64,000 bases of DNA from a virus: positions 1 through 64,000 of the IMG/VR virus record IMGVR_UViG_3300037851_000057. One strand, written 5' to 3'. Positions 10,792 to 56,325 of this stretch are shown here, piece after piece (position 1 is the first letter of the stretch; each line of letters opens with the position of its first letter). The translations under genes and the position numbers were made by a program. A model generated the notes under the pieces. That model saw only the letters and a program-made list of their open reading frames with translations, did no database searches and had not been told where the DNA came from.

Positions 10792-12213
10792 TCAGCGGTT
10801 GGGAACGATAGGGGGCATCGCGCCCGCGGGCTGGGGCGGGATGATGGGCACTGGAGCCGCGGGAACCGGCACGGTCACCACCACGGTCTGGTCCGGGCCC
10901 TTCGCGGAGTCCATGCCCATGACCATCGTAGAGCCGGGCTCTTTTTCCTTTGACGCGGGGATGCTCCCCAGCTCGGCGCCGTGCTGGCTCCACCCCTCCC
11001 GCGCCTTCCGGGAGAACAGCTCGCCCTTCACGCCCGGGCAATACTTCTGGACGATCTCGTAGAACACGTCCGGCTTCTGGGAGTGTTGCTCAGGCGCCGC
11101 CGTGAACAGCGTGCTGGGGCAGGGCTTCTCCAGGAACTTGGTCCCGCCCTCGCCCTTGGTGGCCAGGATGCAATGCTCGGTCTGCCCACGGAGCCAATCG
11201 CCCACGCCCATCTTGGTCTTGGCCCAGGTCAGAAGCCCACGGGCTTCCAGTCCCCACGCCTTGAGAACGTCCAGGGCCTCGCCGCTCAGGAGATGGGCGT
11301 TGGTCACCCACAGCCACACCACGGCGTCCTTCTCGATGGGGAGCTTGAGCGCCTTGATCTCATCCGTGGTCATCGTCGGGTAGGGCGTCCGGCCACGTTG
11401 GGTGGAGTCATCCTCCCGGGTCTTGTTGAAGGTCCACGGCGGGTCCACCACGAGCACTTGAACGATGCCCTTGGGTGGCGGGTTCGCCTTGATGGCCTTG
11501 AGCTGTTCCTCGAAGGTGAGCTTCCGCTCCGCGTCGCGCACATTCTTGGCGTCGCCCTTCTCGATGGCCTTCATGATCTTCTCTTGCTTGGTCGGCGTGT
11601 GCTTGGCCAAAGCCGCCGCCTCGTGGACGCGCATGGCGCCTTTGTCCACCGCCTTCTGGACCGCCTCGATGGCGCCCTTGCGGACCTTGTTGGCATACGC
11701 CACCAACCGGGTAGAGACGCCACCCACAGCGTTGGCCGCATCTTCGGCCGCCGTGTGAGCGGGGGTCCGAGGGCTTGACTGCAAATTTGCAGTCAAGCCT
11801 TCCTCTTTCGCTTTACCCTTGGCCTTGGTCTTGGTCGCCTCGCCCCCTGCTTTTCGGCCTTCCTCTGCCCGGAGCTTGGCCGCCTTCTCGTACAGATCGG
11901 TCAGCTTTGACGCGATCATGGCCAGTTGGCTCTCGTTCAAGTGGCGCCGCTTGACGTTCAAGCTCACCACCTCTCGCGCCAGCTCGTAATCGTCCTCGTG
12001 TTTCGAGCGGATGTAGCTGGGGTCAATGCCCAGCTCCTTGCACGCCTTGTAGCGATGCCGGCCGTCCACGATGCGACCGTCCTTGCTCAGTAGGATGGGG
12101 TTCTGGAGCCCGCGGAGCTTGATGTCCTGTTTCAGCTCGTGGAACTCCAGCTCCGTCATCTCGGGCATGAGGGACGCTACCGGGTGAATCTTCATGGGCT
12201 TGACCTTGCTCAT
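10792..12213 (-). CDS. ParB-like nuclease domain fused to MT-A70-type (DPPW) DNA N6-adenine methyltransferase
   Basis: N-terminus: NPILLSKDGRIVDGRHRYKA (ParB/Srx fold). C-terminus: VVDPPWTF, YPTMTTDEI, WLWVTNAHL, TWAKTKMGVGDWLRGQTEHCIL, HSQKPD. RBS is GAGGAGAGCGACGT before the ATG. Confidence 0.9.
   Translation of the reverse strand: MSKVKPMKIHPVASLMPEMTELEFHELKQDIKLRGLQNPILLSKDGRIVDGRHRYKACKELGIDPSYIRSKHEDDYELAREVVSLNVKRRHLNESQLAMIASKLTDLYEKAAKLRAEEGRKAGGEATKTKAKGKAKEEGLTANLQSSPRTPAHTAAEDAANAVGGVSTRLVAYANKVRKGAIEAVQKAVDKGAMRVHEAAALAKHTPTKQEKIMKAIEKGDAKNVRDAERKLTFEEQLKAIKANPPPKGIVQVLVVDPPWTFNKTREDDSTQRGRTPYPTMTTDEIKALKLPIEKDAVVWLWVTNAHLLSGEALDVLKAWGLEARGLLTWAKTKMGVGDWLRGQTEHCILATKGEGGTKFLEKPCPSTLFTAAPEQHSQKPDVFYEIVQKYCPGVKGELFSRKAREGWSQHGAELGSIPASKEKEPGSTMVMGMDSAKGPDQTVVVTVPVPAAPVPIIPPQPAGAMPPIVPNR
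11772..11799. repeat. 28-bp perfect palindrome GGCTTGACTGCAAATTTGCAGTCAAGCC, copy 1 (inside the ParB-methylase linker)
   Basis: Read directly. A 34-nt stretch (11769-11802) is identical to 56295-56328. Confidence 0.95.
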
Positions 12214-12857
12214 ACGTCGCTCTCCTCTACGGATTCCAGTATCCGCTCATAACAGTTGTCCACCACTTGCTGGAATGGACGCATGGCATCGATCACGTCC
12301 CACCGGCCATTCCCCTCGTGTTGCTTCCACAGCTCTCGATAGGACTCGACCACCTTGGTGGTGAAGTCCAGCTTCCCCTCGTACAGCTCAGGCGCGAGGT
12401 CACCATCCCGCGCCGCCCGCCGCCGCATCGCCTCCTCCGGGGTGATGTCCAGCAACAGGCTCAGGTCCGGCTCGGCCATCATCTCGTGAACGCGCTCCAG
12501 CCACGCCCGGTCCAGACCATCCAGGCCGCCGTAGACCCACCCACTCTGCCAGTAGCGGGCCACGATGACCCGAGGGCCCTCGGGCTCGTTCAAACTGGCG
12601 TCCATGAGCTTGGGCATGAACTCCAAACGGTTCACCACCTGGAGGGCCTGGAAGGCGAGGGCACTGTAGTGCTTGGAGACTTGGGCCGTGCCGTAGACGG
12701 GGATGTACCAATTCTTGCGGAGATAGTCCCGGATGATGGGCCCGGTCACGCCGGCATCGTTGGGGAAGGCCATCGCCTCCGCCTTCAACCGCCTCGCCAG
12801 CTCCTCAGCCACGCTCGTCTTGCCCGAACCATCAGATCCTTCGATGACGATCAACAT
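12210..12857 (-). CDS. tmk: thymidylate kinase
   Basis: MLIVIEGSDGSGKTS P-loop typical of Tmk. 215 aa. Stop overlaps the next start as ATGA. Confidence 0.9.
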   Translation of the reverse strand: MLIVIEGSDGSGKTSVAEELARRLKAEAMAFPNDAGVTGPIIRDYLRKNWYIPVYGTAQVSKHYSALAFQALQVVNRLEFMPKLMDASLNEPEGPRVIVARYWQSGWVYGGLDGLDRAWLERVHEMMAEPDLSLLLDITPEEAMRRRAARDGDLAPELYEGKLDFTTKVVESYRELWKQHEGNGRWDVIDAMRPFQQVVDNCYERILESVEESDV

Positions 12858-13327
12858 ACGTGTTTCCAGCTTTCTCTACGGACGATGGCACTGACGTGTT
12901 GTGAACTCAATCCGTACTCTTGCGCGATGCGCGTCTGAGACACTGTTGTTGCGAGCTGACGGATACGTCGCACATCTTTGTCCGTCAACTTGGCCCCAGG
13001 AACATCCGAGCCCCTAAGTATAGACCGCCGCCCCTTCCGAATCATGTCTTGGACGTTATCGCGTTGCGTACCCAGACGTAGATGATCAGGACAAACACAG
13101 GCCGGGTTATCACAGGTATGCAGCACCGACATTCCCGCGGGAATCGGCCCAACAAAGTGAGCATATGCCCACCGATGGGCTGCAATGGTGTGACCGTCAC
13201 ACCAAAAACTACCGTAACCAAACTCTTTAATAACGCCGCCAACCCATAACCAGCAACTCCGTGTCCTTCGGACACGGGACAAAAACCTACTTTCAGGCGA
13301 TGGACGCGGATAGACACCCCGAGGCAT
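12851..13327 (-). CDS. HNH homing endonuclease (HNH_3-type with C-terminal HTH)
   Basis: ..FGYGSFWCDGHTIAAHRWAY.., LHTCDNPACVCPDHLRLGTQRDN. Visibly lower GC than its neighbours. Own canonical SD TAGGAGGTAAGAT before the ATG. Confidence 0.85.
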   Translation of the reverse strand: MPRGVYPRPSPESRFLSRVRRTRSCWLWVGGVIKEFGYGSFWCDGHTIAAHRWAYAHFVGPIPAGMSVLHTCDNPACVCPDHLRLGTQRDNVQDMIRKGRRSILRGSDVPGAKLTDKDVRRIRQLATTVSQTRIAQEYGLSSQHVSAIVRRESWKHVC

Positions 13328-13390
13328 ATCTTACCTCCTAGTGAGGCATCCGGTCTAACATGATGGTGCTGCCCCTGTCAATCCGCGCCT
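12851..13390 (-). mobile_element. free-standing homing-endonuclease gene cassette (HNH ORF plus its own upstream signals)
   Basis: Compositional break (AT-richer). An RBS unlike the phage-typical motif. TTGACA at 13370-13375 (minus strand). Inserted between two phage operon genes. Confidence 0.45.
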
Positions 13391-13657
13391 TCAACCGCGA
13401 TCAACATCGGGCGCCTCGGGGGTCATGATCTGGGCCGCCACCATCGCCTTCTGGCTCGGGGTCAGCACGTTCAAGCCGCGGAGAACGTCCCGTTGCTGGC
13501 TCAGCAACCCGATGGCCTTGTGGTAGGCATCGGCGTCCACCTTCTCACCCGCGCTTTCACAGTTGATGGCCTCCCGCCGTAGCAGGTCGATGGCCACCTG
13601 GAGGCCGGGCTCCAGCGTGCCGTAGCTCATGGGCCGGTACTCAGGTCTTGCTTCCAT
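13391..13657 (-). CDS. hypothetical protein (88 aa)
   Basis: Track ORF. ATG 13657 is preceded by GAGGAGAGCGAAC. Confidence 0.6.
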   Translation of the reverse strand: MEARPEYRPMSYGTLEPGLQVAIDLLRREAINCESAGEKVDADAYHKAIGLLSQQRDVLRGLNVLTPSQKAMVAAQIMTPEAPDVDRG

Positions 13658-13880
13658 GTTCGCTCTCCTCTGGATTCAGGTTCTCGTCCACGAGCGTCCG
13701 CAACGCCGCGCTCCGGTTGGGGAGCTTACGCTCCGCCTTGAACCGCTCCAACGCTGCCAGTTGCTTTTCCTCGAATCGGACGATGGTTGTGGACGGGTTC
13801 TCCAGACTCGGCTTGCGGCCGGCGCCGTCCCGCCGCCCGCCATGCTGGGGCTTCTGTTTCGCTCTCCTCTTGGACTTCAT
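13641..13880 (-). CDS. ribbon-helix-helix (CopG/Arc-like) DNA-binding protein
   Basis: Trimmed to ATG 13880 (GGGAG upstream). Basic N-terminus, then TTIVRFEEKQLAALERFKAERKLPNRSAALRTLV, an RHH pattern. Confidence 0.5.
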   Translation of the reverse strand: MKSKRRAKQKPQHGGRRDGAGRKPSLENPSTTIVRFEEKQLAALERFKAERKLPNRSAALRTLVDENLNPEESEHGSKT

Positions 13881-13902
13881 GACGCACTCCCTTACCTCCA
13901 AG

Positions 13903-13920
13903 CATATACAAAATCAAGTC
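13903..13920 (-). promoter_or_regulatory. degenerate half-copy of the promoter/operator motif (CTTGATTTTG-TATATG)
   Basis: Minus strand reads ggaCTTGATTTTGTATATGcttgg. The left arm and a -10-like box are conserved. The right arm and -35 are not. Confidence 0.2.
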
Positions 13921-14252
13921 CCCAGCCAAGCAAACTGGAACAGCCGCTTGCCCGTCTTGAAAGCGAGCCGGGCCGCGCCCGCGTCAGGGGCCTTCACCTC
14001 GAAGGCCACGATGACGGCCGCCCGGTCAGGGTTGGCTAGCTCCAGGGCCGCCTCCAACGTCTCAGCCGCGTGAGTGTCCTTCCCCTCGTCATCGCACACC
14101 ACCACGATCCACTTCTTGGAGCCCGACTCCGGGCCCACGGTCAGGTGCAGCTCGTCATGGATCACGTCCACCCCACGGAGCTTCCAAGGCACGTTGCCCG
14201 GGCCCCACACCTTGACCTTGTGCTGTTCCAGCAATCTCGCCACATCACTCAT
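13914..14252 (-). CDS. hypothetical protein (112 aa)
   Basis: C-terminal part of track ORF 13914..14705. ATG 14252 follows GGAGGA. The track N-terminal extension looks non-coding. Confidence 0.55.
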   Translation of the reverse strand: MSDVARLLEQHKVKVWGPGNVPWKLRGVDVIHDELHLTVGPESGSKKWIVVVCDDEGKDTHAAETLEAALELANPDRAAVIVAFEVKAPDAGAARLAFKTGKRLFQFAWLGT

Positions 14253-14272
14253 GCTTCCTCCGATTCCAGCCA

Positions 14273-14791
14273 TCATACGCCCCTGAGCGAGCGGACCAAG
14301 AGCTTCCCGGCCAAGTCGCTCGCCTCTTGGCTCGGCTCGTAGACCACACCCTTGGGCAGATCGAAGATGGAGCACCACAGGTAGTCCGGGGGCCGCGTCG
14401 CCCGCCAGTCGATTCCCTGGAGCGCCCGGGCCTGAGCCGGCCACATGCCCGTGGTCAGGTCGATGATCTCCCCACCGGCCGGATGGACCGCCCAGACGTG
14501 CATCTCGGGGAGCGTGTCCGCCAGCTCCGCCTGGGCCACGTACAGCTTCCCACCGGGCTGGTACTCGTAGCCGAAACGGTTGGGACTCACCCCATCGTCC
14601 AGCTCGGTCGCCACGCATGGCCAGTAGGCCGTCCCCGCCTGGAGGCGGAAGTAGTGGTCCCGCTTGTTGGCGACCACGGCCACCGCCCACGCATGGTAGA
14701 GGCACGCTTGCCTCAGCTCCACGCCCGGGAACACCCGCCGCACGAGCTTGCGGGCCTCCGCCACGATGATGCGCCGCTCCGTTCTGTTCAT
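14273..14791 (-). CDS. hypothetical protein (172 aa)
   Basis: Trimmed to ATG 14791, which overlaps the upstream stop as ATGA. Confidence 0.55.
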   Translation of the reverse strand: MNRTERRIIVAEARKLVRRVFPGVELRQACLYHAWAVAVVANKRDHYFRLQAGTAYWPCVATELDDGVSPNRFGYEYQPGGKLYVAQAELADTLPEMHVWAVHPAGGEIIDLTTGMWPAQARALQGIDWRATRPPDYLWCSIFDLPKGVVYEPSQEASDLAGKLLVRSLRGV

Positions 14792-15039
14792 TGGCCCTTG
14801 TTCTCCAGCACAGCCAGCGCCTTCACGCACATGGGCCCCTGCCACTTCTGGCCGAAGCTCTTGAGGCCGATGACCGCGCATCCCGTGGCCACGTCCAGCT
14901 CGGCCGCGGAGACGTGAGCGCACCGCTCGCGCAACCGCTCGCACGGGTCCCCGATGTAGCCCATGCGGTACGCCCGCACGCCAATCCACGCTCCGATGGC
15001 GCCCAACAACAGCAACAGCAATCCAGCTCTCCGTGTCAT
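14788..15039 (-). CDS. small secreted/membrane protein (83 aa)
   Basis: N-terminal hydrophobic RRAGLLLLLLGAIGAWIGV. RBS GGAGGAGAGCG before the ATG. Confidence 0.55.
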   Translation of the reverse strand: MTRRAGLLLLLLGAIGAWIGVRAYRMGYIGDPCERLRERCAHVSAAELDVATGCAVIGLKSFGQKWQGPMCVKALAVLENKGQ

Positions 15040-15350
15040 CGCTCTCCTCCTTGTTTCCGTTTCTCCAGCTCACGCATCACCTGGAGCGCGAACCGCCACC
15101 CACAGGTGAGGCCACAGAAGTAGCCATCCCCGTAGCGCCCGTACTCGCCCGCCCACAAGCTCAGCATGGACCGAAGTTGCCCCTCAGCGTAGCCGGGCCG
15201 CGGTCGGCGCCGAAGGACGGACACCACCGGCTTGTCGTAGATGGTCGCGGGGTCTGGCTCTCCGTCCTTGAGGTCGTAGTGGTAGGTCCGCTTGGGCAGT
15301 TGCCTCCCACAATACTGGCAGGTCGGCCGTGGCGTCTTGGGCTTGCTCAT
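15036..15350 (-). CDS. zinc-ribbon protein (104 aa)
   Basis: CQYCGRQ...CGLTCGW. ATG 15350 overlaps the upstream stop (ATGA). Confidence 0.55.
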   Translation of the reverse strand: MSKPKTPRPTCQYCGRQLPKRTYHYDLKDGEPDPATIYDKPVVSVLRRRPRPGYAEGQLRSMLSLWAGEYGRYGDGYFCGLTCGWRFALQVMRELEKRKQGGER

Positions 15351-15805
15351 AAGCCGCCCCACACCACCGGGTTGGGCCCAGGCGCCAGGAAGGTCCGGCT
15401 CACGTCCGCCGCTTCCACCCGAATGAACCCCGCCCGCTCCAGCCGGGTGAGCACCCCCTCCAGCTCCGCCTTGGGCACCTCCCGGCACAGCCGCGCCGCG
15501 ATCTGGGGGTAGCTCACGCCGTCCGGCTCCGCCTGGATGACAGTGAACACCTCCTGGCCGAGGGTCATGCCGTAACGTCGGCACCAACACTCGGGATCGT
15601 CGCACGCAACGCCCCGCGGCCGGGCCTGCTCATCCCGCCGCCGAAGGTCCTCCGCCGTCGCCTCGCGGACCACCTCATCCTCGGACGCCCAATAGTGGCC
15701 ACCCCCGTGAGCATGGAACACGAGGGCCGTGGCCCGGTCCAAGCGCATCTCACCGCGCCCCGCGATGACGTAGATCCGCCCTGCTACCAGATCTTCCCGC
15801 TTCAT
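15347..15805 (-). CDS. hypothetical protein with C-terminal winged-helix-like region (152 aa)
   Basis: ..VSYPQIAARLCREVPKAELEGVLTRLERAGFIRV.. ATGA overlap at its start. Confidence 0.5.
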   Translation of the reverse strand: MKREDLVAGRIYVIAGRGEMRLDRATALVFHAHGGGHYWASEDEVVREATAEDLRRRDEQARPRGVACDDPECWCRRYGMTLGQEVFTVIQAEPDGVSYPQIAARLCREVPKAELEGVLTRLERAGFIRVEAADVSRTFLAPGPNPVVWGGL

Positions 15806-16131
15806 GGCGTCCCCCCGAGCAAGCTGGCCACGTAGGCGTCCGCCTCCGCCGTGTCCGAGATGACGCGCAACACCGTGTCATGCCAGAGCACGAGCCACGC
15901 TTGGTTGACCGGGCTCCAGACCTTGGACACGCCGTTCATGGTCTGGCGAGCCGCCCTCTTGGCCTTGCACCGTTGCCGCGCCGCCTGTTGCTCCAGCTTT
16001 GCGGTCAGCCTGGGGTGCCTGGGCTGGGGAGGGAACGCGGGAGCCGGGCCCTTCGCGCACTTGGAGCACAGCCCCAGCTCGGACTTGGTGATCTTCCGCT
16101 TCTCACAGTTGATGCACATGGACTCGCTCAT
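15802..16131 (-). CDS. zinc-finger protein (109 aa)
   Basis: CINCEKRK...CSKCAK at the N-terminus. ATGA overlaps at both ends. Confidence 0.55.
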   Translation of the reverse strand: MSESMCINCEKRKITKSELGLCSKCAKGPAPAFPPQPRHPRLTAKLEQQAARQRCKAKRAARQTMNGVSKVWSPVNQAWLVLWHDTVLRVISDTAEADAYVASLLGGTP

Positions 16132-16355
16132 GACTCACCCATCCTTCGGATCTTGTACTCGCAGAACACGGTCACGATGTTGCGGGCTCGCTCGATGGCC
16201 AGCTCGTCCGTCACCACCTCGCCGCGCCGGGTCAGGATCAGCTTGGTCACCGCCTCTACCGCTTCCCGCGGGGTCATGGTGCCGTCATCGAAGGCATCGC
16301 CCCCACAGCTCTCTCGCGGATTCCCGCCCGTCTCGTGGAACTTGCAGCACTTCAC
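16128..16355 (-). CDS. hypothetical protein (75 aa)
   Basis: Track ORF trimmed to GTG 16355, which overlaps the upstream stop as GTGA. Confidence 0.45.
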   Translation of the reverse strand: MKCCKFHETGGNPRESCGGDAFDDGTMTPREAVEAVTKLILTRRGEVVTDELAIERARNIVTVFCEYKIRRMGES

Positions 16356-16552: not shown

Positions 16553-16564
16553 GTCGCTCTCCTC

Positions 16565-16602
16565 CTTGATTCTGATTATACAGAATCAAGCGCCAATGTC
16601 AA
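16565..16602 (-). promoter_or_regulatory. promoter/operator module P1: TTGACA-16 nt-TATAAT with 10-bp inverted arms flanking the -10 box
   Basis: Minus strand: TTGACAttggcgCTTGATTCTGTATAATCAGAATCAAGgagg. -35 = 16597-16602. -10 = 16575-16580. Arms 16565-74 and 16581-90 match 10/10. Confidence 0.7.
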
Positions 16603-16603
16603 G

Positions 16604-16888: not shown

Positions 16889-16897
16889 GGTCGCTCT

Positions 16898-16936
16898 CCT
16901 TGATTGTCATTATACACAATCAAGGGAGCGTGTCAA
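16898..16936 (-). promoter_or_regulatory. promoter/operator module P2
   Basis: Minus strand: TTGACAcgctcCCTTGATTGTGTATAATGACAATCAAGGagagcgaccATG. -35 = 16931-36. -10 = 16909-14. A-tract (UP-like) just upstream of -35. Confidence 0.7.
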
Positions 16937-16973
16937 CACGATTCCAGTCTTTTTTTCTGGGGACGATCCAGGG

Positions 16974-17468: not shown

Positions 17469-17491
17469 GCCCCCAAGCTACCAGAATGGGC

Positions 17492-21914: not shown

Positions 21915-21916
21915 GG

Positions 21917-29205: not shown

Positions 29206-29243
29206 CTTGATTGTCATTATACAGAATCAAGGGGGCATGTCAA
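29206..29243 (-). promoter_or_regulatory. promoter/operator module P3
   Basis: Minus strand: TTGACAtgccccCTTGATTCTGTATAATGACAATCAAGc. -35 = 29238-43. -10 = 29216-21. Arms match 8/10. Confidence 0.65.
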
Positions 29244-29302
29244 GCGCCTAATCGGCGCCCTGTTCCCGAACGGAGAAGCGCTCCAGGTCCATGTTGCGTC
29301 GG

Positions 29303-31450: not shown

Positions 31451-31465
31451 GTCGCTCTCCTCGAT

Positions 31466-31497
31466 TGCTGCAAAATCAACCTTCCCGTTTTGCAGCA
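31466..31497 (-). promoter_or_regulatory. 10-bp perfect-stem hairpin TGCTGCAAAA-N12-TTTTGCAGCA immediately upstream of an RBS
   Basis: Read directly. The loop contains the stop codon of 31476..32129. The hairpin ends 3 nt before GAGGAGAGCGAC-GTG. CTGCAAA half-sites resemble the 28-bp palindrome core. Confidence 0.35.
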
Positions 31498-32129
31498 ACT
31501 TTCTCGATCCGCTTGAGCTTGGCCTCCCACTTCCTGAGCATGGTCTTGGCCAGCTTCACCTTCCGTTGCCACTTGGCGACCTGGGCCCGGACGTGGGCGT
31601 CCTTAGCCGCCTTGCGTTTCGCCTTCCGCTCGTCCAGCTCGGCCGCTCGCTCATCCTCAGTCGGCACCGGGGTCAGTCGGCCCGGACCACAGGCCAGCTC
31701 ACCACGCCGGTAGCGCCTCACCGCTTGGATGGCGTAGGCGTCCGCGTCCCGCTCGCTCAGCTTCCCCCGCGCACCCCACACCCGTGATCCCCGAGGGTGC
31801 TTCTCCTGCCACAGGTGGCGGATCTCGTGGGCCATGAGAAACACGGCCAGCTCGAAGATGCTGTAGACGGTCCCACCCAGGTAGCCCTTCCGCCGCGCCT
31901 TCGCCTCGAACGTGTGCGGGTACTTCTCCCGCTCGGAGATCCGAAGGTTCACAAATGACCGCGCCGTCGCGTGGTAGCCTGAGCCCCGGGTGTACGCCAC
32001 GGCCCTCGAACCCCACTTGGTATCGGTCACGCGGATGTCGAAGGCTTGCTTCAACCCGGACGGCCTCACGGCCTCAGCCAGCTCTTTGAGCCAACCCGTG
32101 TCCAGCTTTGTGGTGTTCTTGAGGGCCAT
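31476..32129 (-). CDS. putative zinc metallopeptidase (HExxH) with Lys-rich coiled-coil tail (217 aa)
   Basis: FLMAHEIRHLWQ. The C-terminal 60 aa are K/A/E-rich. ATG 32129 after GGGAGGAACGCC. Confidence 0.5.
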   Translation of the reverse strand: MALKNTTKLDTGWLKELAEAVRPSGLKQAFDIRVTDTKWGSRAVAYTRGSGYHATARSFVNLRISEREKYPHTFEAKARRKGYLGGTVYSIFELAVFLMAHEIRHLWQEKHPRGSRVWGARGKLSERDADAYAIQAVRRYRRGELACGPGRLTPVPTEDERAAELDERKAKRKAAKDAHVRAQVAKWQRKVKLAKTMLRKWEAKLKRIEKVAAKREG

Positions 32130-33493: not shown

Positions 33494-33531
33494 CTTGATT
33501 GTGATTATACACAATCAAGGAAGCACGTCAA
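33494..33531 (-). promoter_or_regulatory. promoter/operator module P4
   Basis: Minus strand: TTGACGtgcttcCTTGATTGTGTATAATCACAATCAAGag. -35 = 33526-31. -10 = 33504-09. Arms match 10/10. T9 tract just upstream. Confidence 0.65.
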
Positions 33532-33532
33532 C

Positions 33533-33557
33533 AAAAAAAAAGCTGGAGTCAGTCCAG
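33533..33557 (-). terminator. possible intrinsic terminator (5-bp stem CTGGA/TCCAG followed by C then T9)
   Basis: Lies 15 nt after the stop of 33572..33793 on the minus strand. The stem is weak. Confidence 0.35.
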
Positions 33558-43578: not shown

Positions 43579-43776
43579 CTACTCTCCGTGCAACGCCTGT
43601 TTCAGTAGGTGGAGCCGCGGGTCGTATTGGGTCGTCGCCCTCGACGCCCCTGGAGTCGCCAAGAGGCACGACTCCAGGAGCCACGAGTAGCGAGCCGCAC
43701 AGTCCTTGCACCACAGATCCTCGGGACTCCACTTACCGAAGCACAGGTGCCGACCGTCCGGCCGGGCCGGGCCTAG
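43579..43776 (-). CDS. start-less GC3-rich ORF (65 codons, ..WSPEDLWCKDCAARYSWLLESC..) filling the SSB-like/recA gap
   Basis: My own translation. Its TAG abuts the recA ATG (gagTAGATG). It has no in-frame ATG or GTG. It lies in the -1 frame of the upstream gene. Confidence 0.3.
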   Translation of the reverse strand, partial: LGPARPDGRHLCFGKWSPEDLWCKDCAARYSWLLESCLLATPGASRATTQYDPRLHLLKQALHGE

Positions 43777-45212
43777 AAAGGCGTCCCGTGCCCTTGACCC
43801 GGGTTCATAGGGTATGCCGGCGCACCCCCGGGAGCCGGTTGCGATGACACCATGGGTGGGGTCGGCATCGGCGGGGGTTGGTTGGGCATGGCTGGCATCA
43901 GTGGACCCTGATAGCCCGCGCCCGGTTGCGTTGACACCGGAGGCGGAGCCGGGGGCATCGCCTGGCCACCCCAGCTCTGGGGTGGGAGGCTTGGCGCCGG
44001 GTTGGGCGGAACCGGGGGCATCCCGGGGCCACCCTGGTACGGAGCCGGGCCCCCTTGGTACGGAGCGGGCCCTTGGGGGAACCCGGGAGCCGGAGCCGGA
44101 CCACCCTGATAGGGCGCCGGACCCTGGGGGAATCCCGGAGCCGGAGCGGGCGCCGTCTGCATCGGGTTGGGCCAGGGAGCGCCCGGGTTGGGCTGATAGC
44201 CGCCACCCGGATAGGCACCACCCGGATAGCCACCCGGAACCTGCCCGAAGCTCGGGCCCGTCGCCGGCATCGGAAGGCCCAGCTCACGGATGGCCGCGAT
44301 CACCTCGTCTTGGGTGGGGAGCTTGTTGACACTCTCCAGGTCCCAGAGAGTCTGGAGCAACGGCCAGAGCTGTTGGGTGAAGGGAGCCGGGTCCATGTCC
44401 AGCATCCCCCACTCCACGTTGCGTTCCTCGTTGCCCGTTTTCTTCTTGGACAAGATCAGGTCACGCCCTTGCTCGACGTGGACCAGCTTGGAGATGCCGC
44501 CGCGAGCGTTGGCCAGCCGCGCAATGTCCGCCTGGAGCTGGGGACCAGCCGCCAGAACAAACGGCTTCATGATGCCGTCCTGGCCGTAGTGCGTCTGAGG
44601 GTTGCCCACGTCGGCCACGTTGTAGAGAAACTGGCGCCGCACCCGCCCGAATTGCTGAGCGATGGTCTGGAGCCGTTGGTCCGGGTTCTGGAGCGCCAAG
44701 TGGAGGGCGTGCTGGAACAGCGAGTCCTCGCCCATGTAGACGAGCACCTTGCCCTTGGGGTTTTGCGGCGAGCGGTAGAAGTAGGACTTCACCTCATGCC
44801 ACACCGGCTTCCCGGCCGCCCACGGGGGCAGGATGCGGATGCGGAGCCGGCCCTCGTAGCCGATATGCACGCTCGCATCCCACTTCACCTGTCCGGCCGG
44901 CCCGGGGACTTTCAGGAAGTTGGGCAAAGTGCCCTTCCCCCCGCCACCTTGCGCCGATGCCGCCATGGCCGCCGCCGCCGCGGCATCGTCAACCGCGTGC
45001 GTCTGGGGCATGGTCCCCATGTGTTGGGGCTGAAACCCTTGGGCTTGGGGGTGAGCCGGATACCCCGGTTGCTGGGGGTAACCCGGTTGCGGAGCCCCGC
45101 CTTGCGGCGGATACCCCGGCTGTTGTGGGTAGCCCGGCTGCGGGTAACCCGGTTGCTGAGGGTAGCCCGGCTGCGGATACCCCGGTTGCTGGAATCCTTG
45201 GTATGAACTCAT
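43773..45212 (-). CDS. putative ssDNA-binding protein (gp32-like core) flanked by P/Q/G/Y-rich low-complexity tails
   Basis: ATG 45212 after AGGAGAGTGAC. N-terminal (QPGYP)n. Core ..GRLRIRILPPW... C-terminal PAPYQGG repeats. Sits between the recA-like and UvsY-like genes. The function is inferred. Confidence 0.55.
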   Translation of the reverse strand: MSSYQGFQQPGYPQPGYPQQPGYPQPGYPQQPGYPPQGGAPQPGYPQQPGYPAHPQAQGFQPQHMGTMPQTHAVDDAAAAAAMAASAQGGGGKGTLPNFLKVPGPAGQVKWDASVHIGYEGRLRIRILPPWAAGKPVWHEVKSYFYRSPQNPKGKVLVYMGEDSLFQHALHLALQNPDQRLQTIAQQFGRVRRQFLYNVADVGNPQTHYGQDGIMKPFVLAAGPQLQADIARLANARGGISKLVHVEQGRDLILSKKKTGNEERNVEWGMLDMDPAPFTQQLWPLLQTLWDLESVNKLPTQDEVIAAIRELGLPMPATGPSFGQVPGGYPGGAYPGGGYQPNPGAPWPNPMQTAPAPAPGFPQGPAPYQGGPAPAPGFPQGPAPYQGGPAPYQGGPGMPPVPPNPAPSLPPQSWGGQAMPPAPPPVSTQPGAGYQGPLMPAMPNQPPPMPTPPMVSSQPAPGGAPAYPMNPGQGHGTPF

Positions 45213-45280
45213 GTCACTCTCCTTTGGGTGGGGCATCCACCCCTGCATGTATTGATGCTCAAACCTCGCTTACGGGAACA

Positions 45281-49389: not shown

Positions 49390-49426
49390 TGGTCGCTCTC
49401 CTCACCTACAGGTATTGATGCCGCCT

Positions 49427-50394: not shown

Positions 50395-51389
50395 CACACG
50401 CTCCTAATGAGTGAGCGGGGCCTCACCGGCACCGCGTATTGGCGGAGCTGGACCAGAGCCTCGCGTGGCCAACCGCCCGGATCGCCGTGGGGCAGGTAGA
50501 CCAACCGCGTGTCGAACAGGGACGCCAGCAACGGTGCCAGCGCCTCCATGTCGGCCCTCGCGTCCGCGTCGTACATGAGATCCAACGCCCTCACGCCCGC
50601 TCGCCACAGCCGATGAAGCTGGACGGGGCTGAGGGACTTGCCGAACGAGCACACGGCGTCCGGGCCCGCGTGGATCGCATCCACGGGCCCCTCCGTCACC
50701 ACCACCCGCGGGTAGGCCCGGGCGTAGTGGAGGTTCATGAGCACTTCGCTGGAGACGGCCGCGCCTGGGATGCGGGGAGGGTTGAGCGCCTTCACGTACT
50801 CCTCACCCGGCCGCGGTTCCCACATGGCCCGCGCCTGCCAGTAGACCAACCGCCCCTCATCCCACACGGGGAACACGAGCCGGTTGCTGTACCGCCCACC
50901 CTCCACCCAGAACATCCCGAGCCGCTGGGCATCGTCCATCGTGATGCCCCGCTTGGCCATGTAGGGGAGCTGGACCGTGATGGGCCGCCAGTTGGGGGGC
51001 GGGTGGATGGGAGTCAGGGCCGCGTCGGAGCCCACCTCCATGGCCATGAACTCGGCCATGGTGAGCTGGCTCAGGTCCCGGCTTGTGATGCCGGCCGCCA
51101 GGACCATCTGGACCGCTCGCTTGCGGTCGCAATGGTCCATGAGCTGGATCAGGTCCAAGAGCCCGCCAGCGCCCGCCTCCGGGCGCCGCTTGGGGCCAGT
51201 CGGGGTCTGGATGACAACGTAGCGTTGACACACCCAGCAATGCCACGCCCGCCGCTTGAGGTTCACCACGAGCTTGTCCTTCCCGCACGTCGGGCAGGTC
51301 AGAATCCACTCCTGGACTTGAGCCTCCTGGCCGCCGTGGTCGATGACGTAGCCCTTGAGATCGAACCGCTCTATCGCCAGCTCGATCAT
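50394..51389 (-). CDS. DNA primase (zinc finger plus Toprim)
   Basis: CPTCGKDK..HCWVCQ zinc-binding domain. Toprim VVVTEGPVDAIH and DLMYDADARAD. Confidence 0.85.
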   Translation of the reverse strand: MIELAIERFDLKGYVIDHGGQEAQVQEWILTCPTCGKDKLVVNLKRRAWHCWVCQRYVVIQTPTGPKRRPEAGAGGLLDLIQLMDHCDRKRAVQMVLAAGITSRDLSQLTMAEFMAMEVGSDAALTPIHPPPNWRPITVQLPYMAKRGITMDDAQRLGMFWVEGGRYSNRLVFPVWDEGRLVYWQARAMWEPRPGEEYVKALNPPRIPGAAVSSEVLMNLHYARAYPRVVVTEGPVDAIHAGPDAVCSFGKSLSPVQLHRLWRAGVRALDLMYDADARADMEALAPLLASLFDTRLVYLPHGDPGGWPREALVQLRQYAVPVRPRSLIRSV

Positions 51390-52861
51390 GAGAGCGCCGC
51401 GTAGGTTTGGACGGCCGCTGGATTAGCTGGAGGGGGCACAGCGGGCTTAGCGGGGGGGAGGGATTGCGCCTGCGCCCGCTGCACCCCCAACTTTCGATCC
51501 GCGTACAGATCGGGCATCTGCTTGGAGGCCACGTTAGGGTCATCACGGATCAGCATCTTGTTCAAGTCGCAATGGACACAGAAGCGAACGTCCGCCGCGT
51601 TGTCGCGGTACAGCTCGCCCATCACCCGCATGATCTTGTCCTGCTTCTCCAGGTTGCAGGCATTCAGACTCCCGATGAAGTCCGCCACGCGGACCTTCTC
51701 GTAGGAGTCGGCAATCATGCGGGAGAAGATCCAGTGCGCCTCGTTCTCCGAGCCCTTCTCCGGCCGCTGGGCCTGGGAAGCGGTCCACACGGCGTAGCCG
51801 CGGTTGGACAGGCTCTTGAGGTCCCGGAAGGCCGCCTTCTGTTTCTCCTGCTCGCTCCGGTAGTGGGCCTCCCGGCCGTTCAACAGGTCGCCGTAGTCCA
51901 CGATGACGAGATCCGGCTCCCAATTATGGGTCCGCTTGAGATCCTTGAGCGCTTGATGGATGTCCACCACGGAGTAGTTCCACTCGTCCGTGAAGCCTCG
52001 GAGGTAGAGCTTCCCTCGGCAGAGCTGGTACTCCTGATAGGCCCTCTTGTAGCCGTCGCTGGACAAGCCCCCGTTGCGGACTTCGCGGTACAGCTCTTGA
52101 GTGAGGGCCGCCTCGTAGCGGTCCTCGACCTGGGCCCGGGACCCCTCGAACACGAAATGGGCCGTGGGGCGAAGCTGGAGCTTGGTGGCCGCCACCCCAT
52201 GCGTCATGAGCATGGACGACTTGCCGCCCTTGGCGTAGGCCACCCAGATCCCCAGCTCGCCCTTGGAGAGCCCGCCGCCCATCATGTGGTCAAGCTGGTC
52301 GAACCCGGTCGCCACCGCTCGGGAGCCGAGGTCATTGGCCAGGTGCTTCACCTGGCGAGCCGCCAGGTCATCGTAGAACCACGTATCGTCCACGGGCGCC
52401 CACATGGTCCGGGTGATGCGCTCCATCTCCCCCATCATGTAGTCGTAGGCTTTCTCCACCTCGTTCTTGTTGTAGAGCCGCTGGCTCTCGTGGAACGCCC
52501 GGACGAAGATGTTGCGCTTCACGAAGTCCAGCACCGTGTCCCGGAGCCAGGCGTCGTCCCGAATCCGCGCCGCGCCCACTTGCTCCAGGGTGAGCTGGTA
52601 GAGCGGTCGGAGCTTCGGGTCCATGCGAAGCGTCTGTTGCTTGATGGTCTGGAGGGTGGGGAACGCCCCGTACTCGTCCTTGAACCGGATGGCGTAGCTC
52701 CACGCCCAGCTCAGCACCTCGTTCTCGAAGTAGCGGGGGGACAAGAACGGGGCGGTCAGTTGCGCGAAGCGGGGGTCCTCACACAACAGCCGCAAGAGCG
52801 CCTTCTGGTACTCCAGCTCGAAGGGAAAACGCTCAGGGGTAGTGGGGAGATCACCGGCCAT
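51386..52861 (-). CDS. dnaB: DnaB-family replicative helicase
   Basis: ..TGFDQLDHMMGGGLSKGELGIWVAYAKGGKSS.. (Walker A), LVIVDYGDLL (Walker B). N-terminal DnaB-like helical domain. Confidence 0.85.
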   Translation of the reverse strand: MAGDLPTTPERFPFELEYQKALLRLLCEDPRFAQLTAPFLSPRYFENEVLSWAWSYAIRFKDEYGAFPTLQTIKQQTLRMDPKLRPLYQLTLEQVGAARIRDDAWLRDTVLDFVKRNIFVRAFHESQRLYNKNEVEKAYDYMMGEMERITRTMWAPVDDTWFYDDLAARQVKHLANDLGSRAVATGFDQLDHMMGGGLSKGELGIWVAYAKGGKSSMLMTHGVAATKLQLRPTAHFVFEGSRAQVEDRYEAALTQELYREVRNGGLSSDGYKRAYQEYQLCRGKLYLRGFTDEWNYSVVDIHQALKDLKRTHNWEPDLVIVDYGDLLNGREAHYRSEQEKQKAAFRDLKSLSNRGYAVWTASQAQRPEKGSENEAHWIFSRMIADSYEKVRVADFIGSLNACNLEKQDKIMRVMGELYRDNAADVRFCVHCDLNKMLIRDDPNVASKQMPDLYADRKLGVQRAQAQSLPPAKPAVPPPANPAAVQTYAALS

Positions 52862-53513
52862 GGTTCCAACGCCCCTCAGCGATCTGAGCTTGCTCCAGCG
52901 TGATCAAGCCCGAGCGGAGCGCCACCGGATCAAACGCCGGCACCGCCGCCCGTAGCTTGGCCGCACAGGGCTGAGCCAGGGGGCATCGGATACACGCGAG
53001 ACTCTTGGGATGGTAGCCCCACGTTGGGTGGGCGTAGGGCGCGTTCACGAACATCTGGTCCATGCACCGGCCGGGCTCGCCGGCCGTCAGGTAGCGCCGC
53101 TTGAGCGCTTCCGCCATCGGGCTGAGGTCGCGGTTGGGGTCGAAGGTCGCGCCCTCGTGGAGCCGCTTGTGGGCCAGCTCCCGATGGATGCGATGGTCGA
53201 AGTAGGGGGTGTCTCGGAGGGTGCGGTACTTGGACAGGACGAGCGGTTCACGTTTCTCGGTTGGCGTGAGAGCCGTGAGCTTGGGAGCGAATCGGAAGTT
53301 GGTGCGAGCGAACAGCCAGTAGAGCCAACGTCGGGAGTCAATCTGGCGGGAGATGCACCACTCGTCCATCACTTGCAGGGATGGGAAGGCTTTGTCCTTC
53401 CCGAGTCCAGCAATGGGGTGGCCCCGCCGTATTCTCACCACGTATTCTGTTCGCGCTCGGTACTCATTGAAGTCATCCAACAGGGTTTGCAATCGCTCTT
53501 GCGTCCCGGTCAT
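52851..53513 (-). CDS. hypothetical protein (220 aa)
   Basis: Track ORF directly upstream of dnaB. CIRCPLAQPC. Could be an accessory replication factor, but I saw no supporting motif. Confidence 0.55.
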   Translation of the reverse strand: MTGTQERLQTLLDDFNEYRARTEYVVRIRRGHPIAGLGKDKAFPSLQVMDEWCISRQIDSRRWLYWLFARTNFRFAPKLTALTPTEKREPLVLSKYRTLRDTPYFDHRIHRELAHKRLHEGATFDPNRDLSPMAEALKRRYLTAGEPGRCMDQMFVNAPYAHPTWGYHPKSLACIRCPLAQPCAAKLRAAVPAFDPVALRSGLITLEQAQIAEGRWNHGR

Positions 53514-53551
53514 GGTTGTCCCTTTCCGGGCCCCCTCTCAAGGGCCGGGTG

Positions 53552-53788
53552 CTAGTCTTTCGTCATCGGTTCAATTCCAGAGATAGCGTGCTTGTAGATC
53601 ATCTGCGTGGTGTCCGTGCCGTCCACTTGGACGCCCACAGAGTACACGTCCACCCAGACAAGTCTCCCCACTACAGGCACCCATCCATCGTCATTCGGAT
53701 GCGTGAGCCACACGCGGATGGTCTTGCCCTTGTTGGCCTGGAACCATTCGCTCTCGGGGCTCTGTCGCGGCTTCTTGCCGTTCCCCAT
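53552..53788 (-). CDS. Hfq/Sm-like protein (78 aa)
   Basis: IRVWLTH..VVGRLVWVDVYSVGVQV..TQMIYKHAISGIEP. The Sm2 box YKHAIS matches bacterial Hfq (QMVYKHAISTVVP). ATG 53788 after GGAGAA. Confidence 0.6.
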   Translation of the reverse strand: MGNGKKPRQSPESEWFQANKGKTIRVWLTHPNDDGWVPVVGRLVWVDVYSVGVQVDGTDTTQMIYKHAISGIEPMTKD

Positions 53789-53808
53789 CACCTGTTCTCC
53801 GTTGTCAG

Positions 53809-54306
53809 TCACAGGGGGTTGTTCTCCAGCTTCCAGTTGGGGTCCAGCTCGCTCGCTTGGGTTATCAGGAACCGGATGGCCCGATCCAGCTCCTCGATGG
53901 TCAACGTCTCCGGGAAGCCCACGTCCATCATCTTGCCCTCGGCCGCCGCCTTGGGGTCCGGGTGCGGGACTTGGTGATGCTTGATGCCGGCCCGATGATC
54001 CCGGTAGCCCGCCACGAGGTTCTGGAAGTCGCGGATGCGTTCCTCCCAGATCACTGAGTCCATGGAGTCCACGAGATGGGTCGCGTTGAACACGAGCCAC
54101 GCTCGGCCACTGGCCGCCAGCCACTCCTTGAGCTTGTCCGGGCCCTGCATCCAGGTCCGCATCTGAGCCTCTGAGCGCTCGATGTCGCTCATGGCTTTCA
54201 CGTCCGGGGTTTCGATCAGCTTCGGTTCCGTCACGCCGCTCTCCTCATTCACGAAAAAATGCCCCGGCCGACCAAGGGACAGGTCAACCGGGGCCTTCGG
54301 TTTCAC
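53809..54306 (-). CDS. hypothetical protein (165 aa)
   Basis: Track ORF with a GTG start and no clear RBS. Alternative ATG 54192. Confidence 0.45.
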   Translation of the reverse strand: MKPKAPVDLSLGRPGHFFVNEESGVTEPKLIETPDVKAMSDIERSEAQMRTWMQGPDKLKEWLAASGRAWLVFNATHLVDSMDSVIWEERIRDFQNLVAGYRDHRAGIKHHQVPHPDPKAAAEGKMMDVGFPETLTIEELDRAIRFLITQASELDPNWKLENNPL

Positions 54307-54340
54307 GAGTTATGGGTCATGTCTACCATGTTCCGTTATC

Positions 54341-54368
54341 GGCGCCAACCCGTTTCGGGTGTGGCGCC
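54341..54368 (-). terminator. GC-rich hairpin GGCGCCACACCCG-AAA-CGGGTTGGCGCC just after the helicase stop
   Basis: Read directly. ~12-bp stem with one bulge, 10 nt after TAG 54378. No U-tract. Confidence 0.3.
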
Positions 54369-54377
54369 CTCCACTTC

Positions 54378-55964
54378 CTATTGATGCCCGGGGGCTCCTC
54401 CCGGTAACACCGCTCCCTCGAAAAAGTTGACGGTGGGGGGCATTCCCGCCTGGAGCCAGCCGGACAACAGCGAGAAGTCGTAGAGCACGCTCACCTCGAA
54501 CGTCGGCTCCGCGTGGTAAGTCAGCATCCGCTGTTCACTGTGCGCCATGAGCCGCTTGTGGTGGCGATCCGCGAAGTCCACGATCAACGCCGTCGTCTTG
54601 CCCGGCACCGCCGTGCAGACCCGGTAGGCGTTCTGAGTCATGGACACCTCGGCCTTCTCCCCGCGGGCGTACACGAGCGCGTCCACGCTCGGGAGGTCCA
54701 CGCCCTCGCCCAAGAGGGAGGTCCCCATGAGCACCTTCACCTCCTGGTCCGCCAAGAACGAGTCGATGATCCGCGTCTGGATGTCCCGGGGCCGGTCGGT
54801 GCTCAAGAACTCCACAGCATCGAACTCGGCGCCAGCCGGGGGCTTGGGTAGGAACTGACCCAGGATGTGGTCCAGCTCCCGCCCTTGCGCCTTGGTGCCC
54901 ACGAGAACCAGGACCTTCATGCCTCGCTGGTACAGCAACAGGGCCGCCTGGGCGACCATGTGGTTGCGGACCTTGTGCTCATGGATGCCGGCCTGGCCGA
55001 AGCCTCCCGAGAACTGGTTGCCGGCGCCGCGGAGCTTGGGGTGTCTGGGGACGGGAACAAACACCACCTTGGTGGGGACCAGGAAGCCCCGCCGCAACAG
55101 CTCCTCCGAGCTGACCTTGAAGATCGTGTTGCTCAGGAGCGCGTGCATCGCCATCGCATCGTGGCCGCTCCGAAAGAACGTCCCGGTCATCCCGTAGCGG
55201 TAGTAGATGTGGTCGCACTTGGGGATGATCTCGTTGGTGTAGGTCTTGGCCGCCGTGTGATGCCACTCGTCCACCACCAACATCTCCCGGCCCGCGTAGA
55301 ACTCCGGGGCCAGGTTCCCCGCCGTCGCCGACGTGCAGACCACAACCTTGTGGCGAGCCGCCCGTTCCAGCTTGTCCGCGCTCGTGCCCACGAGATGGTA
55401 GACGTAGTTGCGGCCGAAGTGGTCCTCGATGACCCGGGCCGTTTGCTGGACAATGCGGTCGGTGGGAGCAATCCAGATCGTGGGGAGCCCGAGCCTCCGG
55501 TGAAGCTCCAGCATCGTGCGGGTCTTGCCCGACCTGGGGGGCATGTCGAAAACGCCCCTCCCGAGCCGAAGCCCGGCCTCCACGGCCGCCTCCTGGTAGT
55601 CCCTCAGCTCGACCTTGGGGAACTCGGGCATCTCCTCCGCGGGGCGTCGCCGGGTGTCCAAGACGTGGGGCTGGTAGTTGAACTTGGTGCAGACCCGGGT
55701 GACCATGGGCAGTAGCCCGGTCGGGAAGTAGGGATACATGGTCTTGGGTCGCCTGAGCAACCGAATCCACCCGTCCCAGCCCTTCTCCTCGCCTGGGGGT
55801 GGCCTCCAGAAGGGTTGGCCCGTTGCCGGGTTGATGGCCATGGCGAGGGCCTGGGGGGTAGGGTAGGACGCCTCGTACTCCAGCACCCGAAGGATGAACT
55901 CGTCCGCCTGGAGGATGCTCGTCCAAGTGTTGCCTACCTCGAAGTGCACCTCAGCTCCCGCCAT
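54378..55964 (-). CDS. SF2 DEAD/DExH-box DNA helicase
   Basis: Motif I MPPRSGKTRT, motif II LVVDEWHH, motif III-like MTGTFF, motif VI-like QNAYRVCT. 528 aa. Confidence 0.85.
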   Translation of the reverse strand: MAGAEVHFEVGNTWTSILQADEFILRVLEYEASYPTPQALAMAINPATGQPFWRPPPGEEKGWDGWIRLLRRPKTMYPYFPTGLLPMVTRVCTKFNYQPHVLDTRRRPAEEMPEFPKVELRDYQEAAVEAGLRLGRGVFDMPPRSGKTRTMLELHRRLGLPTIWIAPTDRIVQQTARVIEDHFGRNYVYHLVGTSADKLERAARHKVVVCTSATAGNLAPEFYAGREMLVVDEWHHTAAKTYTNEIIPKCDHIYYRYGMTGTFFRSGHDAMAMHALLSNTIFKVSSEELLRRGFLVPTKVVFVPVPRHPKLRGAGNQFSGGFGQAGIHEHKVRNHMVAQAALLLYQRGMKVLVLVGTKAQGRELDHILGQFLPKPPAGAEFDAVEFLSTDRPRDIQTRIIDSFLADQEVKVLMGTSLLGEGVDLPSVDALVYARGEKAEVSMTQNAYRVCTAVPGKTTALIVDFADRHHKRLMAHSEQRMLTYHAEPTFEVSVLYDFSLLSGWLQAGMPPTVNFFEGAVLPGGAPGHQ

Positions 55965-56048
55965 GTTCTTCTCCAGTCACCTATGGTGGCCGTGGGCCAC
56001 CCCTTTGAGGCGAAGCCTCAAAGCTGCGAATTTTTCGTCTCTTTAGTA

Positions 56049-56088
56049 GATCCAGATCCAAGATCAACGATCCGATCCTGCCTGGATC
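56049..56088. repeat. cluster of six GATC sites in 40 bp (four as GATCC)
   Basis: taGATCCaGATCCaaGATCaacGATCCGATCCtgcctgGATCt, read directly. Confidence 0.95.
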
Positions 56089-56096
56089 TTCCAACG

Positions 56097-56151
56097 CACC
56101 CCGCCCCTTGACTACCTGGAAGGTAGCCTCCAACGGGGCAGGGGCGGGGTG
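56097..56151. other. nested stem-loop: 11-bp perfect GC-rich stem CACCCCGCCCC/GGGGCGGGGTG enclosing CTACC-TGGAA-GGTAG
   Basis: Read directly. Confidence 0.8.
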
Positions 56152-56297
56152 AAAAGTAGGGAAGCGAATTGATTTCGTTGAGTTTTTTGCTGTTTGATGT
56201 GCCTGGTTTGTCGTTGTGCTGAGGATGTTCAATCCTGATAGTGATGATGCCGGGTCGGGTCGTTTGGTAACACGTCCCGTGCATTTTTCTCGGGGAG

Positions 56298-56325
56298 GGC
56301 TTGACTGCAAATTTGCAGTCAAGCC
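56298..56325. repeat. 28-bp perfect palindrome GGCTTGACTGCAAATTTGCAGTCAAGCC, copy 2 (7 nt downstream of the 56333 stop codon)
   Basis: Read directly. Identical to 11772-11799. Confidence 0.95.

Follow-up and report, generated by a model that had tools for sequence, protein, structure and literature searches.

Introduction

Chromosomal ParB proteins (Spo0J/ParB) carry a ParB/Srx N-terminal domain with a GxxRxxA motif, followed by a helix-turn-helix (HTH), and their palindromic cis site may lie in the parB gene itself. For instance, one parS site of B. subtilis is located inside spo0J. Here, we analyze a 64,000-nt stretch of viral DNA (IMG/VR record IMGVR_UViG_3300037851_000057, positions 1 to 64,000; hereafter, the window), in which a 28-bp perfect palindrome, GGCTTGACTGCAAATTTGCAGTCAAGCC, occurs within the gene of a ParB-HTH-MT-A70 methylase fusion protein (copy 1) and again 44.5 kb away, behind a lysis-like gene (copy 2). 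The phage protein resembles the chromosomal ParB proteins in its domain order and gives profile matches to ParB and Noc. In contrast to them, it comes without ParA among the open reading frames (ORFs) scanned, lacks the C-terminal ParB dimerisation domain, and ends in a DNA methylase. The putative phage site is 22–32 bp long, whereas parS has 16 bp, and it is fixed at the codons of the linker that precedes the HTH. Its host, a phage of ~109 kb, looks lytic.

KorB of RK2 with its OB sites, and Noc with its NBS sites, are ParB-family CTP clamps with roles other than partition, which load at short palindromes dispersed over the replicon and exert their effect at a distance. A silencer of the KorB type could work at copy 2, since a candidate early-gene control region begins shortly downstream. 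Unlike these systems, the phage system has no identified KorA-like partner or membrane-targeting helix, and a methylase domain is fused to the protein. Two phage systems show further similarities. The linear plasmid-prophage N15 carries several SopB-binding palindromes far from the gene, but works with SopA and in partition. In phage lambda, the ori lies in the part of the O gene that encodes a linker, and thus a binding site is found in the linker DNA of its own gene; this site consists of iterons bound by an initiator, not by a ParB fold.

A 2025 survey (PMC12704722) reports that phages and prophages frequently encode DNA methyltransferases joined to a ParB-CTPase fold, and that the function and DNA targets of these proteins are unknown. 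The phage protein belongs to the domain architecture class of this survey. The string ‘palindrom’ does not occur in its text, and its description does not extend to the in-gene palindrome, the covariation or the second copy. In-gene palindromes were not described in the open-access papers that we searched, an absence that does not prove novelty. M.EcoGII is not a further example of such a fusion, as it carries no ParB domain. From the comparisons below, we consider it slightly better than an even bet that the palindrome is a parS-like dyad site for the protein’s own HTH, with copy 2 as a second such site and perhaps a hairpin as well.

Two identical palindromes in the window

An exact search located the palindrome at two places in the window (Table 1). 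No third match to the 28-mer was found in the window at up to 3 mismatches, nor did any appear in 100 shuffles, and when up to 2 mismatches to its inner 14-mer were allowed, the window search returned the same two places and nothing else. The copies share one orientation and are identical over 34 nt (11769–11802 and 56295–56328), as the preliminary description had stated. Their architecture consists of 11-bp arms around a 6-bp centre (11-6-11), and the copies are identical as 14-6-14. A near-identical contig extends past the window end, and its further 10 kb contain no third copy. A REP/MITE-like or other small mobile palindromic element, proposed earlier as an alternative, is rejected because there are only two copies and because the orthologous linker of the related locus L019 has the same length.

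The first copy is in frame in the ParB-methylase gene and coincides with a disordered linker in the AlphaFold2 (AF2) model. It had been placed in the linker between the ParB-like and MT-A70 domains. The linker assignment holds, but the linker does not directly adjoin MT-A70; it joins the ParB N-domain and its long helix to the HTH. As described before, copy 2 follows directly on the last lysis-like gene, and it opens a 368-nt non-coding stretch ahead of the helicase gene. We also tried other types of sites. A promoter in the palindrome is rejected, as the TTGACT in one arm has no -10 partner and the promoter scan was negative. The boxes of LexA, LacI/PurR, MerR/HAIR and C-proteins do not fit the palindrome in their spacing.

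Domain organization of the ParB-HTH-MT-A70 protein

Across 22 homologues, residues G51, R54, A57, N86, R89, R90, H91 and L92 are invariant, forming the GxxRxxA motif and an N..RRHL motif that is similar to box III (N..R..L). Matches to ParB-like PHROGs reach E 5e-16. The profile of these homologues matched Noc in the PDB (7NG0, E 3e-6), together with 7BNR, 7BNK and 6T1F (E ~4e-5 to 7e-5), and the N-domain also matches PadC. In the alignment to Caulobacter ParB (6T1F), positions 22–159 correspond to chain residues 55–217, reaching the DNA-binding domain of the latter. The AF2 model displays the N-domain, the long helix, the disordered linker encoded by the palindrome, and then HTH-like helices (155–163, 168–180 and 183–190) with pLDDT above 90. 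A fold search with the full model returned METTL3-type structures only among the top 50, adding nothing on the N-terminal half. The motifs and profile matches point to a ParB/Srx N-domain with nucleotide-binding motifs, and the model places the predicted HTH directly after it.

The preliminary description had suggested a role in genome segregation. We found no ParA-like match among the ~40 window ORFs scanned, which do not include small ORFs or the contig's other 45 kb. Because no ParA was found and the phage looks large and lytic, a partition role is unlikely.

Copy 1 is maintained against codon bias

The copy 1 codons ACT, GCA, AAT, TTG and TCA are rare in this phage; ACT, GCA and TCA account for 6%, 5% and 3% of their synonymous sets, respectively. 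Given the peptide, the probability of the codon string is ~1e-7. Meanwhile, 6-bp palindromes are purged from the window. Among hexamers expected at least 5 times in the whole window, 26 palindromic ones are seen at most once, compared with 30 of 2,638 non-palindromic ones, and AAATTT is found nowhere but in the two copies. The sites are thus kept at the DNA level, against codon bias. The exact conservation in a coding linker had been taken as a sign of DNA-level function, an argument that the rare codons back.

The avoidance itself is wide. GAGCTC is absent from the whole window (50 expected), as is CAGCTG (42 expected); CTGCAG and CTCGAG are likewise missing, and CTAG occurs 9 times against 53 expected. 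This suggests large-scale restriction-site avoidance.

Palindromes recur at one position in ParB+HTH genes

A protein-alignment scan of viral contigs yielded 80 ParB+HTH loci with 34–73% G+C, and 64 distinct loci were used for palindrome counts. With the RRHL motif as the anchor, we counted palindromes of 9 or more pairs that had no more than 1 mismatch and a loop not exceeding 6 nt. In the 64 loci, 48 palindromes lie 70–210 nt downstream of RRHL. The remaining ~400 kb contain 180, so that ~0.12 would be expected per such interval. Symmetry through the centre, without a loop, was observed in 31 of the 48 in-gene palindromes (65%) versus 26 of the 180 in the background (14%), and the centre reads AAATTT in 22 of these 31.

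The encoded peptide reads ..(S/T/D/E)ANL and is always followed by P, H, Q or R, all with codons starting in C, as GCAAATTTGC needs. At their C-termini, the ORFs with a palindrome carry MT-A70, phage Dam (PF05869), N6_N4_Mtase (PF01555) or unknown domains. Since three unrelated methylase families carry the element, it belongs to the ParB+HTH module and not to one methylase.

The closest viral-contig relative, L019 (65% amino acid identity), carries GGCTTGTGTGCACCGGTGCACACAAGCC at the same codons. This palindrome is perfect but different, and reaches 32 bp counting flanks. All 4 half-site differences are mirrored, including those in the central 4 nt, which are unable to pair in a hairpin, and the linker length is unchanged relative to the window gene. 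Another perfect palindrome, a 24-mer, is present in L028. Across close relatives, the arm consensus is ~GGCT[TC][TG]A[CG]YGCA and the centre is variable. By comparison of these genes, the palindromes appear to be dyad-symmetric cis sites on the same replicon as the gene, conserved by covariation.

Searches beyond these loci gave little. A metagenome scan with GGCTTGNNTGCANNNNTGCANNCAAGCC found no second copy of the L019-type palindrome, and when both regions were compared with 50,697 phage records by megablast, no close cultured relative was found. In a protein search of cultured phages, the full architecture was found only in Mesorhizobium phage vB_MseS-P1, where the linker is short and the palindrome absent.

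Could such palindromes arise without any function? Template switching is known to turn quasi-palindromes into perfect ones, also with several changes at once, and quasi-palindromic codons (..S/T-A-N-L-R/Q-S..) may have been perfected in this way, illegitimate recombination then placing a copy after the lysis gene. The graded series from imperfect palindromes (L021, L023) to perfect ones (window, L019, L028) agrees with this explanation. It leaves aside that ~70% of the loci have a palindrome at one position against the ~0.12 expected, that the arms differ between lineages, that rare codons are retained in a palindrome-purging genome, and that in-gene and intergenic elements match in three lineages (see below). 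We regard this explanation as very improbable.

HTH motifs vary together with half-site types

We compared the HTH region with the half-sites of the palindromes. The CTGCAAATTTGCA core is found in three loci only: the window, L089 (a Dam fusion) and L091 (an N6_N4 fusion). In the HTH-region alignment, VS(T/P)RLVA occurs in the same three loci only. Arms containing GATC pair with (P/G)S(V/I)KRA, and palindromes whose centre is 4 nt longer pair with (R/Q)Y(V/I)S. Such a correlation is the pattern expected of a protein and a site that co-evolve, with descent as a partial confounder.

Copy 2 occupies the position of a post-lysis hairpin

The non-coding region next to copy 2 contains an A/C-rich tract (56169–56218), a GC-rich hairpin CACCCCGCCCC..GGGGCGGGGTG (56097–56151), six GATC in 40 nt (56049–56088), a conserved box CTACTAAAGAGACGAAAAA (56031–56049) and two small hairpins (55985–56022). 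The same anatomy is found upstream of the helicase gene in L024, L025, L026 and L145, with an (AT)n run and long repeats in L025. We consider this region a candidate origin or early control region.

A hairpin stands right after the last lysis-like gene in 3/3 helicase-anchored relatives (L024, L025 and L026). The L026 hairpin matches the in-gene element of L021 over 19 + 10 nt. The L024 hairpin has 17 nt in common with the in-gene element of L022, from the same sample, and the L025 hairpin shares the arms of the L023 element with a different centre. In the first and third of these pairs, the two members stem from different samples, so that the matches are family-level evidence and not proof within one genome.

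These hairpins bring in the terminator question. The preliminary description had offered a shared terminator as an alternative, and like intrinsic terminators, copy 2 is a strong GC-flanked hairpin right past a stop codon. In contrast to intrinsic (Rho-independent) terminators, neither copy is followed by a U-tract on either strand; the terminator scan found nothing at these places, and copy 1 lies inside an ORF. Both copies fold to a 12-bp stem in the sense transcript, and the hairpin in the copy 2 fragment has a centroid of ~-22 kcal/mol (z ~-4).

A broader explanation of this kind is an RNA or single-stranded DNA hairpin. Copy 2 would be a late-operon terminator or 3'-end stabiliser, and copy 1 would serve in intragenic pausing, attenuation or processing, with their identity due to gene conversion. 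The stem in both sense transcripts and the distance of only 7 nt from the stop codon to copy 2 agree with it, as do the T-runs that follow the L024 and L026 hairpins at the copy 2 position. The RecA-like, Mre11/Rad50-like and RuvC proteins of the phage could mediate the conversion. On the other hand, besides the missing U-tracts and the negative scan, a terminator within the ORF would truncate the protein. A hairpin also does not need central symmetry, which distinguishes the in-gene palindromes from the background and is mirrored in L019 down to the central 4 nt. The constant link to ParB+HTH and the correlations between HTH and half-sites would be left unexplained. Taken together, we judge the hairpin explanation unlikely.

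The 18-mer core GACTGCAAATTTGCAGTC adds to the hairpin side. It occurs in 48 unrelated bacterial contigs (L147–L194), roughly 9 being estimated by chance, nearly always between A-runs and T-runs as an ordinary terminator hairpin, and in none of these contigs does it lie in a ParB-like ORF. Its viral matches are mostly low-GC hairpins flanked by A-/T-runs, and we therefore rejected the 18-mer as a marker of homologous sites. In Flavobacteria, Clostridia and gut phages, GACTGCAAATTTGCAGTC thus recurs as a terminator hairpin that works in both directions (further loci: L001, L004, L006–L009, L011, L012, L014 and L017).

One unrelated high-GC phage (IMGVR_UViG_3300044613_003103, L010+L013; also 3300042294_003065, L018/L003) carries two copies of GACTGCAAATTTGCAGTC at a distance of ~840 bp. 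One of them is read in frame (..RTANLQS..) within the terminase small subunit (TerS) gene, and the other begins 3 nt past the stop codon of the gene upstream. At 2–3 kb from these copies are an HNH gene and an orphan ParB+HTH gene (2.4 kb off). The arrangement could be chance or a second ParB-site arrangement.

The two copies bracket the replication module

The contig to which the window belongs has 109,201 bp and comes from a metagenome-only phage family of ~105–110 kb. The window has 64% G+C, and almost all of its genes lie on the minus strand. In minus-strand order, tail/baseplate genes and lysis-like genes come first, followed by copy 2 with the non-coding region. Then come genes for the SF2 helicase, a DnaB-type helicase (by homology to gene calls of relatives), RecA-like and Mre11/Rad50-like proteins, RuvC, an amidase and ThyX. 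After many small genes, the order ends with an HNH endonuclease, Tmk, the ParB-methylase (copy 1), dNK, TerL, a DUF5661 protein and the portal. By this order, the two copies bracket a 44.5-kb replication and nucleotide-metabolism module, copy 1 being ~2 kb upstream of the terminase gene TerL.

Another DNA machine might recognise the sites instead. The palindrome might be a recombination core (11-6-11, dif-/lox-like), an origin element or a pac/cos signal, which sits in the ParB gene by linkage only. The 11-bp arms with their 6-bp centre and the identical 14-6-14 stretch have the form of a recombination core; close relatives keep the arms and differ in the centres, and the centres within the window are identical. 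Copy 1 is near TerL, copy 2 abuts the origin-like region with its GATC cluster, and in one unrelated contig the 18-mer is found inside TerS. This last case may be chance, because the 18-mer alone is a common hairpin. However, neither a tyrosine nor a serine recombinase was found among the ~40 ORFs scanned, the spacer AAATTT is symmetric and therefore gives no directionality, and recombination between the copies would split the genome. A tyrosine-recombinase core site, which has an asymmetric spacer of 6–8 bp, is rejected on these grounds. Furthermore, the element tracks the ParB+HTH module across unrelated phages. In a group of 43-kb phages, the palindrome-bearing gene lies among CII-like and DNA polymerase clamp genes, in an early or regulatory setting away from the terminase genes. 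Linkage to another machine is quite unlikely in our assessment.

A putative loading site for the ParB-HTH-methylase

The reading of the palindrome as a parS-like site for the ParB-domain protein was proposed in the preliminary description. Palindromes at the same position, covarying arms, central symmetry, rare codons and the HTH correlation favour it, as do the occurrence of the element with ParB+HTH whichever methylase is fused, the ParB and Noc matches of the N-domain, and the joint evolution of the two sites in close relatives. A partition use is unlikely, and a second copy is not general.

Several observations weigh against this reading. The most conserved part is the centre AAATTT, and dimeric HTH proteins usually read the arms. 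A single copy of the own core is found per contig in 25 contigs of ~12–63 kb (most ~43 kb) and in two of 94 kb, by which a second copy as a general rule is rejected. Selection is not absolute, because the in-gene palindromes of L021 and L023 are imperfect (11/14 pairs) and L022 has lost the symmetry in the gene. The correlations between HTH and half-sites are partly confounded by phylogeny, and the protein might need the peptide ..ANL.. for its own sake. The hairpins that L024 and L026 have in place of copy 2 are terminator-like, and a more distant 76-kb relative has a hairpin there that is unrelated to its in-gene place. In addition, the protein has no canonical C-terminal ParB dimerisation domain, and without this domain and ParA, clamp closure is conjecture.

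If the palindrome is a site of this kind, a dimer of the ParB-HTH-methylase would recognise it as double-stranded DNA with its HTH, the codons of which follow shortly after copy 1. At the junction of the late (lysis) and replication genes, copy 2 would be the same kind of site in the position of the late-operon terminator hairpin, where a hairpin role may persist. Site binding would gate an NTP-dependent clamp, and once loaded at the palindrome, this clamp would deliver the methylase to phage DNA in cis. With two such sites separated by 44.5 kb, coverage of a large genome would be easier; the distance the other way would be ~65 kb if the 109-kb contig is a complete circular or concatemeric genome.

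More tentatively, and with rather doubtful prospects, ParB+HTH with the in-gene palindrome may be a portable cassette of loader and loading site, joined to unrelated methyltransferases (MT-A70, Dam, N6_N4), in which an NTP-gated clamp would load at the in-gene site, and in this phage also at copy 2, and would then slide so that methylation is directed in cis to the genome of the phage itself. A palindrome inside the gene would keep protein and site together through mosaic recombination. By analogy, the bound protein might instead act as a KorB-like silencer on the early region next to copy 2, which is pure inference.

If the palindromes are loading sites, each such ParB-methylase comes with a predicted cognate site, and binding, clamp loading, sliding and cis-restricted methylation become directly testable. 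The widespread ..(S/T)ANL(P/H/Q/R).. linker motif would be explained as a translation of GCAAATTTGC, a clear case of DNA-level constraint writing protein sequence. In this phage, the sites would be two landmarks between the replication module on one side and the structural and lysis genes on the other.

Table 1. Coordinates of the two palindromes and of the genes, domains and region around them in the window.
Feature	Position	Strand	Remarks
Palindrome copy 1	11772..11799	.	In frame, codons 138–148 of the ParB-methylase gene (EGLTANLQSSP); disordered linker in AF2 model
Palindrome copy 2	56298..56325	.	Begins 7 nt past the TGA of ORF 56333–56791(-); related hairpin at the same place in relatives
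ParB-HTH-MT-A70 fusion gene, 473 aa	10792..12213	-	PHROG 21315 and ParB-like PHROGs; Pfam MT-A70; PDB profile matches Noc, ParB, METTL3
ParB/Srx-type N-terminal domain, residues ~8–110	11884..12192	-	Invariant G51..R54..A57 and N86..RRHL
Predicted helix-turn-helix region, residues ~155–190	11644..11751	-	..AVGGVSTRLVAYANKV..; follows immediately on the palindrome codons
MT-A70 adenine methyltransferase domain, residues ~250–416	10966..11466	-	DPPW motif
Last lysis-like gene, 152 aa	56333..56791	-	N-terminal signal-like segment and C-terminal hydrophobic helix; no family match
Conserved non-coding region	55965..56294	-	Between copy 2 and the helicase gene
SF2 helicase, first replication-module gene downstream of copy 2	54378..55964	-	

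Other features of the window

A hairpin near 31.5 kb had been described as related to the palindrome. The hairpin exists (31465–31498, TTGCTGCAAAA-N12-TTTTGCAGCAA), with 11-nt arms, a 12-nt loop and -19 kcal/mol (z -3). It does share half-sites with the palindrome, but only as the 7-mer CTGCAAA/TTTGCAG, which recurs elsewhere in the window. We consider it an RNA hairpin that is probably unrelated to the palindrome. The stop codon of ORF 31476–32129(-) falls within it, and it lies just before the Shine-Dalgarno sequence (SD) and GTG of the next ORF, and may couple translation of the flanking genes.

Four near-identical promoter-like sites lie on the minus strand (16575–16602, 16909–16936, ~29206–29245 and ~33494–33533), two of which match TTGACA-N16-TATAAT at 12/12 positions. 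Each contains a 10-6-10 palindrome, CTTGATT[C/G]TG-TATAAT-[C/G]A[C/G]AATCAAG, centred on the -10 box, whose outer CTTGA..TCAAG resembles the arms of the 28-bp palindrome with an offset of 1 bp per side. The sites at 16575–16602 and 16909–16936 are followed by an SD and a start codon. The set looks like operator-controlled middle or early promoters.

Directly upstream of Tmk and the ParB-methylase gene, 12851–13327(-) encodes an HNH endonuclease (PF13392). No HNH call is present there in L021, L022 and L023; the window HNH may therefore be a free-standing homing endonuclease. Homologues of the helicase (P0153, P0165, P0170, P0190, P0191, P0202, P0221, P0223, P0232 and P0236) include several of ~635–856 aa with Hint, intein or homing-endonuclease Pfam domains. 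By these domains, inteins recurrently reside in the helicase gene of this phage family; the window helicase (528 aa) has none.

Tandem repeats of ~190–213 nt, in three to four copies with 60–79% identity, occupy 58937–59643 in a 780-aa tail-fibre-like ORF, 58204–60546(-). An array of 15–18-nt repeats is found at 45071–45191 in ORF 43773–45248(-). Finally, a 62-kb contig (L196, Logan SRR12687606_65763) encodes a protein identical to that of the 785-aa window ORF 60554–62911(-), and therefore the same or a nearly identical phage has been sampled independently.

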